This document shows, in pieces, positions 3,982-41,284 of a stretch of 62,505 nucleotides of DNA. The first letter of the stretch is position 1. The number at the start of each line of letters is the position of its first letter. The translations under genes were made by a program, and so were the position numbers. The stretch lies in the NCBI GenBank assembly GCA_002713585.1, contig PATD01000038.1:5362-67866 (forward strand). Reading direction: 5' to 3'. Source of the stretch: Methanobacteriota archaeon (GTDB lineage Archaea > Thermoplasmatota > Poseidoniia > Poseidoniales > Thalassarchaeaceae). The notes below the pieces were generated by a model. That model saw only the letters and a list, made by a program, of their open reading frames with translations. It was not told where the DNA came from and did no database searches.

Positions 3982-5589
3982 TCAATCTTCATCCGGACCA
4001 AGTTCAGATTGCCAGTCCGGCATCTGAGCATCCTGCTTTGCCCAAAGGATATCTCCTATTCGAAGAACTGAAATCGCTGATTCAGTCGCTCCTGTGATAG
4101 CTTGACGGGCTATTCGAACAGGTTCTAGAACCCCGCGTTCGTTCATTGGATGGATGGAACGATCAGTTACATCGATACCAAGCCAATCATTGGACGAAGA
4201 GGTCTGCGCAGCAGTGAGTCCGATTATCTGATCAAGACCATCGAGACCTGAATTCTCTGCAAGTGCCCGAGGTATTGATTCAAGAGCTGCTGCGTAAGCT
4301 TCCACAGCAAGTTGCTCACGTCCTGGAATCGTTGTCGCATGAGCACGAAGACGGCGGGCAAGAGCGATTTGAATCGCTCCTCCTCCGGGAAGCATCTTGG
4401 GTTCGTCTTGCAAACCACAAGCAACTCCGATGGCATCATCAAACGCACGGGACACTTCGTCAATTACTGCATCTGTTGAACCTCGTAAGACAACGGTCTG
4501 ACCAGAACCCACTGACCCATGAATACGAACGTGATCTATGCTCTCCCATCGCTCTTCATTCACTGAATTAAACTCGCCAACACTCTCAGAACGAATGCCT
4601 TGAACATCCCGAACAATCCGGGCACCACATGCTCTTGCAATAAGTTCGAGATCGGTGCGTTCCACTCTGCGATAAGTGACAATGCCTGCATTACGAAGCA
4701 TTGGAATCGCATCCTCGTGGATTCCATCCCTTACAATAAGCAAATCAATACCCGCTTCCGCAATGGCATCCACTCGCTCTTTCATCTCAAGCTTCTGCCG
4801 CTGGAGGAAGCGGGCCATCATTCCTGGCTCCGTGATTCTGATTGAGGCATTGACACTGAGTTCCTTCGGATCCAGTCCACCATCAAGCAAGAGTACTTTG
4901 CCACCGTCTAATCGATTAGGAGTCTGTGAATCAAGACGGGTCTTACGAAGAACGATGCCATCAACACGCTCAGAATCTGCAATCCGTCCGCCTCGGATGA
5001 TTATTCGCTTGATTAAATCGGGATCAACATGCTTAGATGAGCCCCGATTCGCTGCAATAGAGGCCGTCTCAACTGCGAGATTTGAAAGAATTCTGCGAAC
5101 ATCCTCACTCACTTTGCCCGCAAGGCTAGTCGAAACAATTCGAATATGATCCGCCTCCTCCATAGGCTTCGAGATATCCTCTATAGCGATTAAGCTGTGA
5201 TCCATTGCAATCCGATAACCTGCAACCATGACTGATGGGTGGATTCCTCGATCAATCCAATCTAATGCATTGAGTAAGAGTTCTGCAGTGAGCACAATTG
5301 CACTACTTGTCCCATCTCGAGCTTCATCATCCTGAACACTAGATGTTGATATCAACATTCGAGCCGTAGGATGCTCTACTTTAGCCGCTTCTAGAACAGT
5401 GACTCCGTCATTGGTCACCTGAACATCACCATCATCGGATAAGAGCATCTTATCCAAACCAAGAGGTCCAATGGTTGATCGGACTGCATCCGCTAACGCC
5501 AACGCAGCACGGACATTGTTGCGAAGAGCAGTGTGCCCCTGTTCTCTCTCCGTATCCTGAAGGATGCGTTCATGCTCTCTCCGCGCCAT
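3982..5589 (-). CDS. ths: Thermosome subunit (group II chaperonin)
   Basis: ALADAVRSTIGPLGLDKML, VTNDGVTVL, DGTSSAIVLTAELL and PGGGAIQIALA motifs. Start trimmed to MARREHERI; the ORF extends to 5652. Confidence 0.9.
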   Translation of the reverse strand: MARREHERILQDTEREQGHTALRNNVRAALALADAVRSTIGPLGLDKMLLSDDGDVQVTNDGVTVLEAAKVEHPTARMLISTSSVQDDEARDGTSSAIVLTAELLLNALDWIDRGIHPSVMVAGYRIAMDHSLIAIEDISKPMEEADHIRIVSTSLAGKVSEDVRRILSNLAVETASIAANRGSSKHVDPDLIKRIIIRGGRIADSERVDGIVLRKTRLDSQTPNRLDGGKVLLLDGGLDPKELSVNASIRITEPGMMARFLQRQKLEMKERVDAIAEAGIDLLIVRDGIHEDAIPMLRNAGIVTYRRVERTDLELIARACGARIVRDVQGIRSESVGEFNSVNEERWESIDHVRIHGSVGSGQTVVLRGSTDAVIDEVSRAFDDAIGVACGLQDEPKMLPGGGAIQIALARRLRAHATTIPGREQLAVEAYAAALESIPRALAENSGLDGLDQIIGLTAAQTSSSNDWLGIDVTDRSIHPMNERGVLEPVRIARQAITGATESAISVLRIGDILWAKQDAQMPDWQSELGPDED

Positions 5590-17633: not shown

Positions 17634-17726
17634 ACCTGATGTTCTATACCACCAGATATGAATCGTTCCAATATACTGTATTGAGGCAGCACACGTATTC
17701 AAGTAATGCAATTATGTCGCTACATC

Positions 17727-18761
17727 ATGGCCGATACGCCAGTATCTACGCACAACCCATCCGGGGATGGGGAGTCCAACGATGCACAGGTGAATCCTGA
17801 ACAAAAAGCACAGATGGAACAGGCATATCAGCAAATGCGTAGAAAAATGCGAATGACACAACTCGCCGAAGGTGTTCGTCACAAATTCATGGTTCTTTCT
17901 GGAAAGGGAGGTGTCGGCAAATCCACTGTCGCTACAGGTCTTGCTCTTGCACTCGCTCGTATGGGACTCAAAGTTGGCCTTCTCGACATAGACATTACCG
18001 GCCCGAATGTTCCGAAAATGCTCGGTATCGAAGGTACACAACTCCATGTCGAAGATGGGCAGATATATCCCGCGATTGGACCGCATGGCGTGAAGGTCAT
18101 TTCGATGGCCTTCCTACTTGAAGATCCAGATAAGCCGGTGATTTGGAGAGGTCCAATCAAGCTCGGTGCAATTCAGCAATTCATTGGAGATGTTGCATGG
18201 GGTGAACTTGACCACTTGATTATCGATTTTCCACCTGGAACCAGCGATGAACCATTGACTGTGACGCAATCCTTGCCTGACATGGATGGTGTCGTGATTG
18301 TAACAACCCCCCAGGAGGTTGCTCTACTCGATTCTAGGAAGAGCATTAACTTCGCGAAAACAATCAATCTCCCCGTACTGGGTGTCGTCGAAAATATGCG
18401 CGGCTATTCACTATCCGGAACAGCAAGGGGCAACGATGGCAAGCCGCTCGGAAAAATCAGCATCGATGTATCCGGCCCATCAGGACAGATGATCGAAGCA
18501 GTAACCACTGACGACGGGGAATGGACCGTGAACCTTGATCTGTTCAAATCAGGAGGAGGTGAAGCAGCAGCCGAAGAAATGGATGTACCTTTCCTCGGTT
18601 CGCTACCATTTGATCCAGGATTTGTCCGAGGAGGCGATGATGGGGTTCATCGAATTATTTCAGAGCCAGAAGGATTTGCCGCAGCCGCGTTTGAGACCAT
18701 TGTTACCCGACTAATCGATACGCTAGAATCCGACGACGATGAAGGCGTGACTATCATCTGA
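17727..18761 (+). CDS. Mrp/NBP35/ApbC-family P-loop ATPase, atypical cysteine-free form
   Basis: VLSGKGGVGKSTVA deviant Walker A. DFPPGTSDE. VVENM followed by a ~48-aa Cys-free insertion where the CxxC cluster-binding motif normally sits. Ends with ...VPFLGSLPFDP. Confidence 0.75.
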   Translation: MADTPVSTHNPSGDGESNDAQVNPEQKAQMEQAYQQMRRKMRMTQLAEGVRHKFMVLSGKGGVGKSTVATGLALALARMGLKVGLLDIDITGPNVPKMLGIEGTQLHVEDGQIYPAIGPHGVKVISMAFLLEDPDKPVIWRGPIKLGAIQQFIGDVAWGELDHLIIDFPPGTSDEPLTVTQSLPDMDGVVIVTTPQEVALLDSRKSINFAKTINLPVLGVVENMRGYSLSGTARGNDGKPLGKISIDVSGPSGQMIEAVTTDDGEWTVNLDLFKSGGGEAAAEEMDVPFLGSLPFDPGFVRGGDDGVHRIISEPEGFAAAAFETIVTRLIDTLESDDDEGVTII

Positions 18762-35152: not shown

Positions 35153-35671
35153 ATGGCAAGGCGAAGGATGAGGAAGAGGAAGCCCGTACGACTGAAGGTC
35201 GTACGACGTATCCTCGATTCCCTAAATGAGAATCTGGGCATCGAGGACGACTTCTCCGACGTCTTTCTTGAAATCGCAGAATTCGGTGAACTAAACCTCC
35301 TGCTTGGTGATCGTGTTCCTCTTGTAATGACAATTAATCGACCAGAAGATCTAGGCGATGTTGCAGCAGTGACTTTTCCTACGCTTCGTGGACTCTTGCG
35401 CTGGAATCTCGAAGTTGGCTGGTGCGCTGTCGACAGGGGTGCGATTCCATTTCTGATGAATGGTGCAGATTGTATGGCAGCCGGCGTACAGATGGTGGAC
35501 CCGAACATCGAACAAGGCGACCTAATCTGGATTCGTGACGAGGAACATGGCAAACCAATCGCAATGGGTTGGGCATTGTTAGATGCTGAAGAAATGAATG
35601 CTGCAACCAAAGGCAAGGCTCTCAGAACAGTCCACTGGATTGGTGACGACCTGTGGGAAATGGAGAATTAA
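35153..35671 (+). CDS. PUA-domain RNA-binding protein (pre-PUA + PUA; MCT-1/Tma20/Nip7-like)
   Basis: C-terminal VDRGAIPFLMNGADCMAAGV...GDLIWIRDEEHGKPIAMGWALL matches the PUA pattern. Confidence 0.7.
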   Translation: MARRRMRKRKPVRLKVVRRILDSLNENLGIEDDFSDVFLEIAEFGELNLLLGDRVPLVMTINRPEDLGDVAAVTFPTLRGLLRWNLEVGWCAVDRGAIPFLMNGADCMAAGVQMVDPNIEQGDLIWIRDEEHGKPIAMGWALLDAEEMNAATKGKALRTVHWIGDDLWEMEN

Positions 35672-35724
35672 GGTCTATGCCCTCGGGAATAGCATTGAAT
35701 AGGTCAAGTACACGAACAATATGT

Positions 35725-36303
35725 ATGAGGCCTCTGATTCCACTTACACTAGTCATGATTCTAATCTCAGCTGCCACTGTCTCTGCTGCGTCAGAAGGAG
35801 GCGTAAACAAATCAGTCGACGAGTTTGCAGATACTGGAATTGACAATGTGGATTCACCCTCTGTCTTCAGTCAAGTTGAGGATTTCGTAATCAGTGTAAA
35901 TATCAACGAAAGTTCAGATGCAGTGAAAATCTACGCGACTACACAAATTTGTGTGAACTCTGGTCTCTGCTATCCTCCTGAACAAATCGAGATGGTAACG
36001 GAGGATAATACCACATGGACTACCACTGTATCACCAATGACTGATCAGACCTACGTGAATTGGAATATTATTCTTGAAAACGCATCAGAGAACCAGACAA
36101 AAATTCCCGAGACTGGATTCGGTTGGAAGGTCTGGTCCGATTGTTGGAACGATGGAACGGGTTGGGGCGGTGAAGGTTACGAAGGTGGCGAGAGTTGCGA
36201 TGATGTATTGGTCTCAGGAGATCCTGAAGGGACTGTTCCTACAGTAGGTATCGCTGCAGTGATTTCTGTTTTCGTAATGGCTGCAATCATCCGTCGTCAT
36301 TGA
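35725..36303 (+). CDS. Small secreted/membrane-anchored acidic protein, hypothetical
   Basis: Signal peptide MRPLIPLTLVMILISAATVSAAS. C-terminal TM VGIAAVISVFVMAAII-RRH. Start trimmed from 35653. The 3' end overlaps the convergent 36287..36733 gene by 17 nt. Confidence 0.55.
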   Translation: MRPLIPLTLVMILISAATVSAASEGGVNKSVDEFADTGIDNVDSPSVFSQVEDFVISVNINESSDAVKIYATTQICVNSGLCYPPEQIEMVTEDNTTWTTTVSPMTDQTYVNWNIILENASENQTKIPETGFGWKVWSDCWNDGTGWGGEGYEGGESCDDVLVSGDPEGTVPTVGIAAVISVFVMAAIIRRH

Positions 36304-36733
36304 TTGTAACGTGTTCGATAAAACGAGATAGACATCGCCTTGCTTCAATACCCCAAGCTTCGATTAGCACTTGAGCCCCACATCCATCAGCATCAATTTG
36401 CCCCTCTCTTAGCCCAGGTGATGCAAGATCACTAGGGACGAACGGAAGACGAAACTCACTCTCAAAGATAAGTTGGACTGCGTCCTCACCTATGGCTACC
36501 GTTAACCCTTGAACCGTGAGGTTTCCGTCCTCAATGGATTCTATTTCACATCCAATCGAACGAAGATGACGCACTACTGCATCGAAAATCTCCTCAGGAG
36601 GGGCCTTTGCTTGCGAGATATCCTCTTCCACCTCGGATGCCGGACCATATGCAGATAGAAACGGAAGATCCATCTCATTTTGAGCCATGAGATCGTCTAA
36701 CCCGCGACCAAGTCCGCGTCTCTCATCACTCAT
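36287..36733 (-). CDS. ParA partner protein: ParB-like N-terminal ParA-activating peptide fused to an unrecognised acidic domain
   Basis: Begins MSDERRGLGRGLDDLM (ParB/Spo0J N-terminal motif). No ParB box or HTH recognised afterwards. The start overlaps the parA stop (ATGAGTGA). Confidence 0.6.
   Translation of the reverse strand: MSDERRGLGRGLDDLMAQNEMDLPFLSAYGPASEVEEDISQAKAPPEEIFDAVVRHLRSIGCEIESIEDGNLTVQGLTVAIGEDAVQLIFESEFRLPFVPSDLASPGLREGQIDADGCGAQVLIEAWGIEARRCLSRFIEHVTINDDG
36686..36721 (-). other. Codons for the ParB-type N-terminal peptide RRGLGRGLDDLM
   Basis: Direct translation of the minus strand, checked codon by codon. Confidence 0.8.
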
Positions 36734-37706
36734 CTCGAAGACCTCCTGGGAACCAAATTACTTCAAGTTCGGAAGCCAATGCTGCATAATCTTGGCCACC
36801 ATGACTCTGTGGAGCATGAAACTGAATCGGGACGCCCTGACTCGGCGATTCTGCAAGGCGAATGTTACGTCTAATCGCCGGTTCTATGACTAAATCGCCG
36901 AATACTTCTCTGAGGTGGCCTGCAACCTGCGTATTCAGGAGGGTGGGCGCATGCATAGTCATAATCACGCCATCCACACCAAGACGGGGATTGAGTAAAC
37001 GTCGCACTTCGTTGAGAGTTCCAGTCAACAATGCGACCCCTTCCAGAGCAAGATACTCCGTTTGTACGGGTATTAAGACGGCATCTGAAGCTGCCAACGC
37101 GTTGATTGACACGATACTCAAGGAAGGGGCTGTGTCGATTAGGATTAGATCGTAATGTGGCTTGAGCGGTTCAAGAGCCTCACTGAGGCGACCCTCTCGT
37201 CCTAGTTGTGATGCAAGAGCCTCTTCCAAACCAATGAGGTTTCTATCGCCAACAATTAGATGGAGGCCTTCCACAGCAGTCGCATGGCGAGCTTGCGTCG
37301 CCATCGCGGGCGTAAGCACAACATCTCTCGTCGTAATGGTGACTCTCGACTTGTCAATACCTAAGCCAGAAGCACAATTCCCCTGAGCGTCGCAATCCAC
37401 AACAAGAACACGCCCCCCTCTCATCGCAACATGTGCTGCGATATTGATTACCGAAGTGGTCTTCCCAACTCCACCTTTCTGATTGGTCACAGTAACTACA
37501 CGTGCAAGACCTGCAACTGTTGGTTCAGCCCTAGGTAATTCGATCGACTCGCGGGGACGGGCCTTCGTATCGAATCCCTCTGATTCAACCGGGTGTTCAA
37601 CTTCGTTAAATGAGACATCTGTGATGAGATTATCATCAATAGACAATATGTCCACGACTGGATACTCATCCGAACCCATCGTTACCTCAGCGAATGCCTG
37701 AGGCAT
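36726..37706 (-). CDS. parA: ParA/Soj-family chromosome-partitioning-type ATPase with a ~70-aa N-terminal extension
   Basis: VTVTNQKGGVGKTTSVINIAAH deviant Walker A. VVDCDAQGN. ILIDTAPSL. LNPRLGVDGVIMTM and AESPSQGVPI blocks. Confidence 0.85.
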   Translation of the reverse strand: MPQAFAEVTMGSDEYPVVDILSIDDNLITDVSFNEVEHPVESEGFDTKARPRESIELPRAEPTVAGLARVVTVTNQKGGVGKTTSVINIAAHVAMRGGRVLVVDCDAQGNCASGLGIDKSRVTITTRDVVLTPAMATQARHATAVEGLHLIVGDRNLIGLEEALASQLGREGRLSEALEPLKPHYDLILIDTAPSLSIVSINALAASDAVLIPVQTEYLALEGVALLTGTLNEVRRLLNPRLGVDGVIMTMHAPTLLNTQVAGHLREVFGDLVIEPAIRRNIRLAESPSQGVPIQFHAPQSHGGQDYAALASELEVIWFPGGLRDE

Positions 37707-37742
37707 TCAAGGTGACGCCCGTATAGAGGTTAGAGTGACGTT

Positions 37743-39842
37743 TCATTCAGTCGTACTTTGGAGCCAGCCTACCATCCGGCCTCGTTCCGCGTCCATTATC
37801 AGATCGAAAGAATGCTCTGATTCCCCTTCTGACCATGATCTCGTGGCTGTGAAAGTAACCTCACCCTCGTCGATATCATCAATGAAATCAAGGAGGTCTG
37901 TATCTTGTGTGACTACGAGACGTGAGGTGAATTCTACGTCTGAACGTAGTGTACCTCCATCCATCAACACCTGAGTCGCTCCAAGGAAATCTGACGTATC
38001 CATCATTCTCGATTGCATCTCAGAAATTGACAAAGTATTGGGAACCGCATTGAGGTTGTACTCTGGAGCATCCGATGGGGCAAGAGTTCCGTCATTTACA
38101 ACTGTACAATTGTTGCCTGAAGAACGTACTAAAGTCCATCCCGCATCGGAATCAGGGTCAACCCAACTAAGATTCCATGTCTCCTCAACACCATCATTTG
38201 CATGGTTCATTCTGTACAGGTAACCATCGTTATTGAGGGCGGAACGAACACCATTTCCTGCGCTCGAATTCATGAGGCATTCGACTGCTTCTTCAACTGT
38301 GAATGCATGGACTGCTGATTCATCAGGCATGTGCCCATCCCACTGCACCTGCGTATTTGGGATTCCTTCACCAGCACCTGGTCGACTATTGTATAAGTCG
38401 CCCCAAACAATCGCACGTTCCCCTGCAGTGAAAGTAGATTCGCGAAGTGTGTAGGTGATTACCAACTGACCATCGGGAACCGCGAAGTCAAGGGCTGCTG
38501 ATTCATGCCAACTACAATCACTCGATTCACGGGCTTTGTCAATGAGGATGTCCACCTTCTGCTCCACAGGCCACGGCGCCCCCTCGCGTACGAGAAGGTC
38601 GATCTTCGCATGACCAAGGCATGTGGCAATACTCGGTTGCTCCATCTTGATAGGTACAAGAATTTCACCGTTTACGCGCTGTGTAGGCTCAACAGTATAG
38701 TCCCAACCTTCTGCAGTTCCGGTTGACCCCTCCTCAAGAATAATGGAACCAAAGGTAGAACGCAAATCCAGTGGTACCGCGGGTTGCAAAAAAAGCGGTA
38801 ATGCTTCATCTATAGCTGTGATTCCTGTACCTCCAAAGGCAGTGTTCTTCAACATACTCCGATCCCCATCGGGGGTGACGAAGTCCAGTGTAGCTTCAGA
38901 ACGGATGGTTGTCGATTCAGTCAACTCCTCCCAAGAAGTAACAGAGATATCCACTGAATTCGCATTCATTTCCCATGTGAGACTACTACTACAACGACTC
39001 CCGTCATTGGTCCATGTCCTACCTGAGAGGTCAGCTAGAAGATCGTAAGAAAGCGATCGTTCGGCTGCAAGATGAATGCGGCCATAACCGTCCCTCGTCT
39101 CAGTAGCTCCAGCATTGTCCCGATCAGTAGGGTCACCAATCTCCGATGTCGGAGCATCACGATAGGCGATACTCGACAGCCCATTCATTGTAATTGCAAG
39201 ATCCCCACAAGCCTTCTCCAATGCCGATCCCGTATTGTCACGAAGCAGAGCGACCATGTCGTTACCATTGACTTGAACTGAACCGCCCGTCATAGTGAAA
39301 TCCATACTATCTCCATAGCGTGCAGGTTCAACAGCGAAAGCTTGCTGATCCTGCATCCAAGTCCACCAGTAGCCTCCACCGGCCAAAGCCGCTACTAGGA
39401 GGAGGCCCCCAAGGAAAATGGCTCGACTCGGCTTGCTACTATCACCCAAGGAAACGGAGGCGTTTAGCTTACTACGTGCCTCAGCCCTCGGCTTGGATTC
39501 CGGTGAATCTACAATCACAGCTTCTAGAATAGTTGCCTCAAGAATCTCGACACTCTCTTTCTCAACCTTGGGTTCAATTACAGGGGAGGGATCTTCTAAA
39601 GGGAGCTCAGACGATTCTGTCTCCTCTTCTTCAAGAAGGAGGAAACCCTCATCCTCGTTGGACTCTTTTATCTCTGATAGAACCTCTTCATCAGGGCCCT
39701 TAGTATCCTGTTCATCAAGCCGCAGAGAATCGATAATTCGATCAATTAATTCTGACTTTTTTCCAGAACGGGGAAGCCCCATCGCTTCGAGAAGAACCTT
39801 GAGATCGGCGACTGTTCGCTTCTCAAGATCACCTCGCTTCAT
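37743..39842 (-). CDS. Membrane protein: cytoplasmic SAP/HeH-like motif, acidic linker, one TM helix, ~525-aa extracytoplasmic domain
   Basis: N-terminus RTVADLKVLLEAMGLPRSGKKSELIDRIIDSL fits the SAP/Rho_N helix-extension-helix pattern. TM IFLGGLLLVAALAGGGYWWTW near aa 150-172. Same strand as parA and 36 nt upstream of it. Confidence 0.6.
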   Translation of the reverse strand: MKRGDLEKRTVADLKVLLEAMGLPRSGKKSELIDRIIDSLRLDEQDTKGPDEEVLSEIKESNEDEGFLLLEEEETESSELPLEDPSPVIEPKVEKESVEILEATILEAVIVDSPESKPRAEARSKLNASVSLGDSSKPSRAIFLGGLLLVAALAGGGYWWTWMQDQQAFAVEPARYGDSMDFTMTGGSVQVNGNDMVALLRDNTGSALEKACGDLAITMNGLSSIAYRDAPTSEIGDPTDRDNAGATETRDGYGRIHLAAERSLSYDLLADLSGRTWTNDGSRCSSSLTWEMNANSVDISVTSWEELTESTTIRSEATLDFVTPDGDRSMLKNTAFGGTGITAIDEALPLFLQPAVPLDLRSTFGSIILEEGSTGTAEGWDYTVEPTQRVNGEILVPIKMEQPSIATCLGHAKIDLLVREGAPWPVEQKVDILIDKARESSDCSWHESAALDFAVPDGQLVITYTLRESTFTAGERAIVWGDLYNSRPGAGEGIPNTQVQWDGHMPDESAVHAFTVEEAVECLMNSSAGNGVRSALNNDGYLYRMNHANDGVEETWNLSWVDPDSDAGWTLVRSSGNNCTVVNDGTLAPSDAPEYNLNAVPNTLSISEMQSRMMDTSDFLGATQVLMDGGTLRSDVEFTSRLVVTQDTDLLDFIDDIDEGEVTFTATRSWSEGESEHSFDLIMDAERGRMVGWLQSTTE
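39723..39842 (-). other. SAP/HeH-like motif coding segment (aa 1-40)
   Basis: L-x2-(R/K)-T-V-A-D-L-K-x-L-L-x3-G-L-x3-G-K-K-x-E-L-I-D-R-I. Confidence 0.55.
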
Positions 39843-39934: not shown

Positions 39935-41284
39935 TCATTGACCGCCGCGATATTTTGCGATTTGTTCAGCGGACCATCCCGCAGCAAGGAGTTGCTCATC
40001 GGTGTACTGATCAATCTGTGTGGCCCCAGAGTTGTCATTTTCGTCACTTTGCTGAACCTCGTTAGCAGAAACCTGTTCTTCTTCAATGGGCTCACTGACA
40101 GCTTCCTCGGCCTCAGCAACAATATCTGTCGAAGATTCTTCCTCCGATGACATCTCCTTGGACATCACTGGACTTTCATCGGCGGCATCAGTGTTCTCTG
40201 CACCTGTAGTTAGATCCATGCCAAGTTCACGCTCAGCATCGGCAGCATCGAGTACCTGTTTCTCTGTTGATTTGTCTGAAGTCTCAGGATATCTGACCCT
40301 CTTGTACGCAACACCTGCCTTCTGTGCACCAATGAGGGCGGCTCCCAGTAGGGGGAGGATAAGTAGGCAGATTGGGAGCAGTAAGGCGCGTGGCCAAAAC
40401 ATCTGAGCCTCTGCATCCACAGTAGCCTTCCATTGGTAGTTCGTACCCTGCCATTGGTCAGAATTCAGTTGTTGGCCTTCGATGTACTGAAAGACGAGGC
40501 AATGCCGACCTGGCTTCACTGTAAGAGCATATTCCACCTCTTGACCCGAAGGAAGAGCAGGCGCATCTGACCGATCATAACGAATCACCTGAGATTCTGT
40601 CGTAATGTCCTCCATCAACGAGGAAGACTCCCAAGGAAGTGAAGGAGACATCATTGCGCAACCATCTGGTGCTTCAAATAAGCCAAGGCGGAAAGAGGTG
40701 TTTCCACCATCGAAGCGATGGCCCTTGAGACTCACTTTAACTTGAACATCGTTGATTGGACCAAGATCAAGGATAGGGAAACCAATCATCAATTGATTCA
40801 AATCTTGTTCAAACGAGCCTGCATTAGAATCACTGCCATCCCAAATCTTGTTTTCAGCACGATCATTTACCTCCTCTAGTGACCAATGGGGATTTGGATT
40901 CGCATCTGAAGTGTCCATCCAAGACTCGACCTCGATTGCACTAAGATTCTGATGCGGATTCACAGTATGATCTCCTTGAGTCACAGGGAAAAACGAGAAC
41001 GTGAACAGAATAGTAAGAACCCCAAGAACAAGATAGACATTCATTCTCTTGTTGGAGCGGTTCTCCTTGAGGTTACTCAATTGCTTTTCTCGACGCTCCT
41101 TTCGGTTCCTTCGATCCTCCATCTCTGAGATGGGATCAAACGCTGCTTCTGGAGCGGACTTCGGGCCAACAGGTGGGGCCACTGATGGGCCTTGGACAGA
41201 GGCTGATGGCCCTGCAGATGATACCTCGCTAGCGGGTGGATTCCCGGGCTGCATGGCTTGACCGATGACGGACTTCGATTTCAA
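39935..41284 (-). CDS. Two-TM membrane protein: Pro/Ala-rich and basic cytoplasmic N-terminus, ~220-aa outside domain, acidic cytoplasmic C-terminus ending in a GW motif
   Basis: TM1 VYLVLGVLTILFTFSFFPV. TM2 LLLPICLLILPLLGAALIGA. C-terminal DQYTDEQLLAAGWSAEQIAKYRGGQ. Confidence 0.55.
   Translation of the reverse strand: MKSKSVIGQAMQPGNPPASEVSSAGPSASVQGPSVAPPVGPKSAPEAAFDPISEMEDRRNRKERREKQLSNLKENRSNKRMNVYLVLGVLTILFTFSFFPVTQGDHTVNPHQNLSAIEVESWMDTSDANPNPHWSLEEVNDRAENKIWDGSDSNAGSFEQDLNQLMIGFPILDLGPINDVQVKVSLKGHRFDGGNTSFRLGLFEAPDGCAMMSPSLPWESSSLMEDITTESQVIRYDRSDAPALPSGQEVEYALTVKPGRHCLVFQYIEGQQLNSDQWQGTNYQWKATVDAEAQMFWPRALLLPICLLILPLLGAALIGAQKAGVAYKRVRYPETSDKSTEKQVLDAADAERELGMDLTTGAENTDAADESPVMSKEMSSEEESSTDIVAEAEEAVSEPIEEEQVSANEVQQSDENDNSGATQIDQYTDEQLLAAGWSAEQIAKYRGGQ

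Follow-up and report, generated by a model that had tools for sequence, protein, structure and literature searches.

A SAP-domain protein with one predicted membrane helix is conserved across Poseidoniales and is a candidate nucleoid-to-envelope tether

A 62,505-nt stretch of a Thalassarchaeaceae genome (GenBank assembly GCA_002713585.1, contig PATD01000038.1, forward-strand positions 5,362 to 67,866; hereafter the window) encodes a protein, SAP-TM, in which an N-terminal SAP domain is followed by an acidic disordered linker of ~100 residues, one transmembrane (TM) helix and an outside domain of ~535 residues. This architecture is real, order-wide and previously unreported: SAP-TM was encoded in all Marine Group II (MGII) archaea sampled, and the family was found in Poseidoniales only. 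We favor, with a probability of about 40%, the reading that SAP-TM is a nucleoid-to-envelope tether presenting a SAP domain of the double-stranded DNA (dsDNA)-binding type on a flexible acidic linker. If the SAP domain is cytoplasmic and binds dsDNA, it would, by way of the flexible linker, hold nucleoid DNA against the cytoplasmic side of the membrane, and the ectodomain would fix the protein in, or couple it to, the cell envelope. The gene and the segments of its product are located in the window as follows.

37743..39842, minus strand: SAP-TM gene, 699 residues, stop codon included (open reading frame, ORF, list)
39720..39830, minus strand: SAP domain, residues 5-41, predicted to be cytoplasmic (Pfam, PDB profile, AlphaFold2, conservation)
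39423..39719, minus strand: acidic linker, residues 42-140, predicted to be disordered and cytoplasmic (composition, AlphaFold2)
39624..39647, minus strand: linker motif 1, GFLLLEEE, residues 66-73 (conservation)
39510..39548, minus strand: linker motif 2, EILEATILEAVIV, residues 99-111 (conservation)
39351..39422, minus strand: predicted single TM helix, residues ~141-164 (Kyte-Doolittle, AlphaFold2)
37746..39350, minus strand: ectodomain, residues 165-699, predicted to be beta-rich, six cysteines (AlphaFold2, Foldseek, profile scans)

The N-terminus of SAP-TM, MKRGDLEKRTVADLKVLLEAMGLPRSGKKSELIDRIIDSL, had been described in a sequence-only reading of this DNA as a SAP-type motif, and profile searches bear this out. 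Pfam SAP (PF02037) matched residues 5-41 over model positions 1-37 of 37, with an E value of 7.6e-11 and a score of 41.8 bits against a curated gathering cut-off of 23.9; SAP_new25 gave a weak second match. In a PDB sequence profile search, a profile built from 35 family members matched solved SAP domains only, with Tho1 at the top (1.3e-5) followed by a plant SAP protein, MKL1, DEK, Hcc-1 and Ku70, and the alignment to Tho1 spanned both helices. AlphaFold2 (AF2), run with the family alignment, placed the SAP helices at residues 11-20 and 29-46 with predicted local distance difference test (pLDDT) values of ~80, a layout that matches the helices at 9-19 and 27-42 of the Tho1 SAP domain (PMC4909252). 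Residues 1-45, which include the SAP domain, have an isoelectric point (pI) of 8.1 (4.2 for the whole protein). The motif is far beyond chance and, judged from its sequence, the domain is a genuine helix-extended loop-helix. Neither LEM, HeH nor Rho_N gave a Pfam match in SAP-TM at E <= 0.1, a marginal Rho_N match (E 0.009) was seen in one of 29 relatives, and no further SAP copies were found within the window.

The Tho1 SAP domain binds dsDNA and not dsRNA (PMC4909252). We infer that the SAP domain of SAP-TM lies in the cytoplasm and, like that of Tho1, binds dsDNA with little sequence preference. In the family alignment G27, K29, L32 and R35 are invariant, and G27, K29 and R35 map to the loop and the second helix, where the SAP consensus has its conserved core. 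These residues, together with the dsDNA preference of the closest solved relative, argue against the view that the SAP domain is instead a protein- or RNA-binding adaptor through which an envelope-spanning protein recruits a factor for the cytoskeleton, division or translation. We regard this adaptor role, for which no candidate protein partner was identified, as unlikely. Several observations nonetheless suit it. Across the sampled sequences the SAP region carries a net charge of only ~+1 (range -2 to +3). The linker carries conserved short linear motifs that would indicate protein docking, and the family persists at loci that lack the neighboring gene for a ParA ATPase described below.

The linker is acidic, as had been proposed, with 26 D/E against 8 K/R and a pI of 4.05 over residues 46-125. 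AF2 pLDDT values fell below 50 over residues 43-166, which predicts disorder, and linker length differs from clade to clade. Within this variable segment, motif 1 has an invariant E71 and invariant or near-invariant L68 and L70, and motif 2 has invariant E102, A103 and A108; motif 2 is retained in clades with and without ParA or the small neighbor p148 (below) nearby. The sole hydrophobic segment above the Kyte-Doolittle threshold, AIFLGGLLLVAALAGGGYWWTW, covers residues ~141-164, and AF2 modeled the TM helix at 147-164, with G155 and G157 invariant in A1/A2. A single TM helix had been foreseen in the sequence-only reading, but at residues 150-172, about ten residues too far downstream. SAP-TM has no N-terminal hydrophobic segment or signal peptide, the TM flank is basic on the N-terminal side (KPSR, more basic in other clades) and acidic on the C-terminal side, and all six cysteines, five of them invariant, lie C-terminal of the TM helix. 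Because of these features a type II (N-in, C-out) single-pass membrane protein is favored by sequence rules, in agreement with the cytoplasmic N-terminus assumed earlier.

A word-indexed search gave 49 relatives with 27-92% identity, in all but one fragment of which PF02037 was already annotated. An exhaustive profile search recovered ~30 full-length clusters at 50% identity (680-866 residues), nearly all aligned from profile position 1-13; beyond these clusters it gave only fragments and unrelated multi-SAP proteins. Pfam SAP was matched individually by 26 of the 29 cluster representatives (50% identity), and L14, G27, L32 and R35 were invariant in all 29. The SAP motif is never lost in this set, which contains no orthologue without it, and the order SAP, linker, TM helix and ectodomain is kept in every full-length relative, which is the conservation of architecture named as a check in the sequence-only reading. 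All 80 loci from species-representative genomes belonged to Poseidoniales, with identities to the query of 30-92% in Thalassarchaeaceae (MGIIb) and 27-29% in Poseidoniaceae (MGIIa). When identity was averaged by region over sequence pairs less than 40% identical overall, the SAP domain reached 42%, the ectodomain 33% and the linker 26%, with 59% for the GFLLLEEE motif and 50% for the EILEATILEAVIV motif. The SAP domain is the best-conserved domain of the protein. The strongest constraint therefore falls on the SAP domain and the two short cytoplasmic motifs, within an architecture that is universal in the family.

The TM helix at ~141-164 leaves an outside domain of ~535 residues, slightly larger than the ~525 first estimated. 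AF2 predicted this domain to be beta-rich, with pLDDT values mostly of 70-90. No sequence relatives of it were found in Pfam, NCBIfam or the PDB profile search, and Foldseek against the PDB gave no convincing fold relative, the best target-normalised template modeling (TM) score being 0.38 with a root-mean-square deviation (rmsd) above 12 Å. The best matches, LolA- or DUF1849-like half barrels, were unconvincing at these limits (TM score <= 0.38, rmsd >12 Å). The ectodomain makes up 76% of the protein and bears invariant Cys, Trp and Gly positions. This raises the possibility that function resides in the ectodomain, as an envelope or S-layer scaffold, an adhesin or an enzyme of unknown fold, with the cytoplasmic part a minor accessory and the ParA adjacency an accident of gene-order conservation. 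We consider this improbable, given that the SAP domain is more conserved than the ectodomain and is retained in all 29 diverse cluster representatives, and that outside the family the ectodomain was seen in the exhaustive profile search as fragments only.

The tether reading invites comparison with eukaryotic proteins. The N-terminal 37 residues of SAP-TM belong to the same domain family, with the same helix-extended loop-helix layout, as the SAP domains of Tho1/SARNP, SAF-A, PIAS, Ku70 and MKL1. Those proteins are soluble and nuclear, whereas the SAP domain here is archaeal and tethered to a TM helix followed by a large ectodomain. The inner-nuclear-membrane HeH/LEM proteins (yeast Heh1/Src1 and Heh2, MAN1, LEM2) share a layout in which an N-terminal helix-extension-helix domain facing DNA is followed by a disordered linker and a membrane anchor. 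SAP-TM differs from them in that its domain is of the SAP subtype, it has one TM helix where they have two, it lacks the C-terminal MSC winged-helix domain that they carry on the DNA side, and its own large C-terminal domain is predicted to be exoplasmic. Membership of the HeH/LEM family was rejected on the absence of a LEM or HeH match at the threshold given above, the single TM helix and the missing MSC domain. Of the resemblance to HeH/LEM proteins drawn in the sequence-only reading, the domain logic stands and family membership does not; beyond the small fold, current evidence points to analogy rather than ancestry.

SAP-TM lies among genes that include one for a ParA-family ATPase, and the elements around it that bear on its function are these.

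36726..37706, minus strand: Soj-type ParA, probable true start 37679 (AAA_31, 8.6e-51)
37692..37718, minus strand: conserved box GCGTCACCTTGAA and hairpin GAATGCC-TCA-GGCATTC, between the SAP-TM stop codon and the ParA start
36287..36733, minus strand: p148, 148 residues, ParB-type N-terminal peptide on a small alpha/beta domain (family alignment, AF2)
39935..41284, minus strand: p449, two-TM protein upstream of SAP-TM, probable start 41254 (hydropathy)

The genes for p449, SAP-TM, ParA and p148 follow one another in this order on one strand, tightly spaced and operon-like, with ParA on the strand of SAP-TM as first noted. ParA has the deviant Walker A motif NQKGGVGKTT. Its closest solved structures are the ParA of 8ray (7e-55) and Thermus thermophilus Soj (3e-51), with Sulfolobus SegA at 3e-11, and by sequence it is nearest to bacterial Soj-type proteins and far from SegA. 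An N-terminal extension of ~55-65 residues before the Walker A motif, acidic, variable and poorly conserved, is present in all clades. Synteny was assessed by tblastn of nine window proteins against 87 loci. Across the order, a block of ~12 kb is colinear: Xer recombinase, RimK, p449 (in part of the loci), SAP-TM, ParA and p148 (likewise), the small protein p216, a PUA protein and, further on, ribosomal protein S8e. ParA adjoins SAP-TM in 58 of 58 Thalassarchaeaceae loci and in 2 of 16 Poseidoniaceae loci, where absence means that ParA was not within the 1-7 kb of downstream sequence examined. Mapped on a maximum-likelihood tree of the ectodomain, this pattern requires at least two gain or loss events. 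The synteny with parA, another check named in the sequence-only reading, holds throughout MGIIb but not in MGIIa, and within a block that is colinear order-wide; the link of SAP-TM to ParA is weaker than was supposed. That the whole block, unrelated housekeeping genes included, is colinear and that ParA is missing from the locus in most MGIIa also fit a function seated in the ectodomain.

The junction between SAP-TM and ParA was initially measured as 36 nt. This is correct to the first ATG of the ParA ORF, but that codon is not conserved (it is ATT in a close relative, L010) and sits within a 17-nt palindrome. The conserved start is M10 at 37679 (ATGGGTTCG), 27 nt further downstream and preceded by GAGGT, and the gap is therefore probably 63 nt. 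The intergenic region holds the box GCGKCAYNTTSAA and then, just 5´ of the ParA ATG, a clade-specific hairpin or palindrome. The box pattern was present in 49 of 57 distinct SAP-TM/ParA intergenic regions, and box and hairpin occupy the equivalent position in L001, L003, L005, L022, L039 and others. With one exact copy in the whole window, GCGKCAYNTTSAA was rejected as a general promoter. Box and hairpin look like a ParA-specific control element, and the box could be a ParA promoter or operator, a start-masking RNA element or a centromere-like site. Contigs from marine metatranscriptomes map to portions of SAP-TM, p449 and p148 and of the overlap between ParA and p148. One 253-nt RNA-library contig (37570-37822, zero mismatches) crosses the SAP-TM/ParA junction and is compatible with read-through transcription from SAP-TM into ParA, these contigs being unstranded and RNA libraries being able to carry DNA. 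The co-transcription earlier considered plausible thus gains a junction-spanning contig, with that limit, but has to be set against the box and hairpin between the genes.

The position of this element, immediately downstream of SAP-TM and before ParA, is also what one might expect of a one-component transmembrane regulator like ToxR or CadC, whose ectodomain senses an external cue and whose cytoplasmic domain, here SAP, regulates nearby transcription. The topology matches, with an N-terminal cytoplasmic domain of DNA-binding type, one TM helix and a large outside domain. ToxR, CadC and RodZ share the N-in orientation and this arrangement around a small nucleic-acid-binding-type domain, but their fold is a winged helix-turn-helix or helix-turn-helix (HTH) and that of SAP-TM is SAP. 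We consider such a regulator very unlikely: to our knowledge SAP domains are not sequence-specific operator binders, the Pfam scan gave no OmpR-type winged helix (Trans_reg_C) or other HTH match, and a 100-residue acidic linker is atypical of the class. Moreover, SAP-TM is retained at loci that lack both ParA and the box, which goes with ParA.

The gene after ParA encodes p148, whose N-terminus, MSDERRGLGRGLDDLMAQNEMDLPFLSAYG, carries the peptide pattern RRGLGRGLDDL...DLPFLSAYG. We take its first part to be the ParA-stimulating peptide pattern of ParB/Spo0J-type proteins; it is extended by a second conserved motif, and R10, L12, L15, L23, F25, L26 and Y29 are invariant. At loci with ParA, basic residues precede the GRGL of p148 (KKGLGRGL, RRGLGRGL), and at loci without ParA these are mostly missing (MSGRGL, MARGL), L077 being an exception. 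In 13 of the 14 ParA-less loci the p148 homologue begins 2-64 nt after SAP-TM, and in the other, L007, it lies ~5.6 kb away. This makes p148 the steadiest neighbor of SAP-TM, steadier than ParA. AF2 left the N-terminus disordered and modeled the rest with confidence as an alpha/beta domain (pLDDT 82), for which structure searches of the Foldseek type gave weak fold matches to the T4 MotA DNA-binding domain (TM score 0.54, E 0.018) and the type III secretion chaperone SycT; no Pfam or NCBIfam match was found. No ParB with HTH and ParB/Srx domains was seen at the locus, where p148 has the peptide only. Nor were there centromere-like (parS-type) repeat arrays around the cluster, where repeats were two-copy and at chance level, or replication-origin markers among the ten large ORFs scanned.

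Neither p148 nor p449 was detected by tblastn in the largest MGIIb subclade (27 rows). There the gene after ParA encodes an EamA-type multi-pass membrane protein (L005 9364-10341, plus strand), the N-terminus of which, MGTKIMSSKGLGRGLES, carries the ParB-type peptide SSKGLGRGLES; GPDLTSFVSVS in the same protein is possibly a remnant of the DLPFLSAYG motif. With the peptide on a membrane protein in one clade, a putative membrane-bound ParA partner therefore recurs. On the other side of SAP-TM, the N-terminus of p449 is rich in Pro and then turns very basic, the tail is acidic, and a YTDEQLLAAGWSAEQI motif lies at the C-terminus. The likely true start of p449 is the ATG at 41254 (MQPGNPP). Homologues lie upstream of SAP-TM in L001, L003 and L007, and only the first two conserve the C-terminal YTDEQLLAAGWSAEQIAKY motif.

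With these neighbors in hand, the tether reading can be extended, more tentatively, in two directions. The two linker motifs may be docking sites for cytoplasmic partners, and in Thalassarchaeaceae the tether might act with the downstream Soj-type ParA and p148, a cooperation that would make SAP-TM a membrane landmark for nucleoid positioning or segregation. Several points weigh against the tether and its extensions. The ectodomain, three quarters of the protein, is explained by no relative. In bitopic proteins, a cytoplasmic tip with a fold of the DNA-binding type can serve to bind protein: the HTH of RodZ binds MreB rather than DNA, which counsels caution over a DNA tether. The acidic linker could oppose DNA binding by the SAP domain. 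The linker motifs persist where p148 is missing and where ParA is missing from the locus, and so track neither partner. Because the block from Xer to S8e is colinear order-wide, the adjacency of SAP-TM and ParA is weak functional evidence; 14 of 16 MGIIa loci are without ParA; and the box and hairpin between the genes suggest that ParA is under its own control. Since in most Poseidoniaceae the locus has SAP-TM and p148 but no ParA, the core function of SAP-TM cannot depend on a ParA encoded alongside it.

A still more ambitious model, which we think quite unlikely, is that p449, SAP-TM, ParA and p148 act as one undescribed membrane-anchored nucleoid-positioning machine. SAP-TM would tie DNA to the envelope, p148 (or the EamA-type protein in one clade) would show the ParB-type peptide at the membrane, and this peptide, perhaps docked on the linker motifs of SAP-TM, would drive ParA on the nucleoid. 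Membrane landmarks that hold DNA or ParA/ParB at the envelope are known in bacteria: HubP with ParA1 in Vibrio, PopZ and TipN in Caulobacter, RacA-DivIVA in Bacillus subtilis, and Noc. HubP likewise has a TM segment, and its cytoplasmic region is highly acidic; Noc links DNA directly to the membrane. These partition anchors are the nearest functional precedents for a SAP-TM tether, to which they are unrelated in sequence, SAP-TM having no LysM, FimV or ParB-family Pfam match. The archaeal SegAB(+SegC) system likewise pairs a ParA-family ATPase with a small non-ParB partner. At the present locus, in contrast, ParA is Soj-like (3e-51 against 3e-11 for SegA) and p148 has a ParB-type peptide and another predicted fold. 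A protein of the SAP-TM type is not described for SegAB. For SegAB of Sulfolobus, SegB foci were seen close to the periphery of the cell, and an as yet unidentified tether to the membrane was proposed (PMC12284271).

A full-text literature search found no paper on an archaeal SAP-TM protein or on chromosome segregation in Poseidoniales, in line with the statement in the sequence-only reading that no characterized archaeal system of this kind was known. MGII archaea are uncultured and belong to the most abundant archaea of the plankton. For them SAP-TM is a concrete candidate for placing the chromosome at the archaeal envelope, testable in heterologous hosts. If the predicted DNA binding is true, the eukaryotic nuclear-envelope layout of helix-extension-helix domain, disordered linker and membrane also exists in a prokaryote. 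If the four proteins do form one machine, it would be a prokaryotic functional counterpart of the inner-nuclear-membrane HeH tethers and would supply the missing membrane tether of archaeal segregation. Should DNA binding fail, what is left is an envelope protein that occurs order-wide, is expressed and has an ectodomain of new fold.

Three further genes were noted in the window. A second P-loop ATPase of the ParA/MinD superfamily, at 17706-18761 on the plus strand, is of the Mrp/NUBPL iron-sulfur carrier type (PF10609, 8.9e-87) and is not partition-related, and a DNA polymerase B gene lies ~5 kb away from the cluster. The gene for p216 (35653-36303, plus strand, 216 residues) is convergent with p148 and is kept at this position across the whole order; p216 itself begins with a signal or TM segment and ends in a TM anchor.

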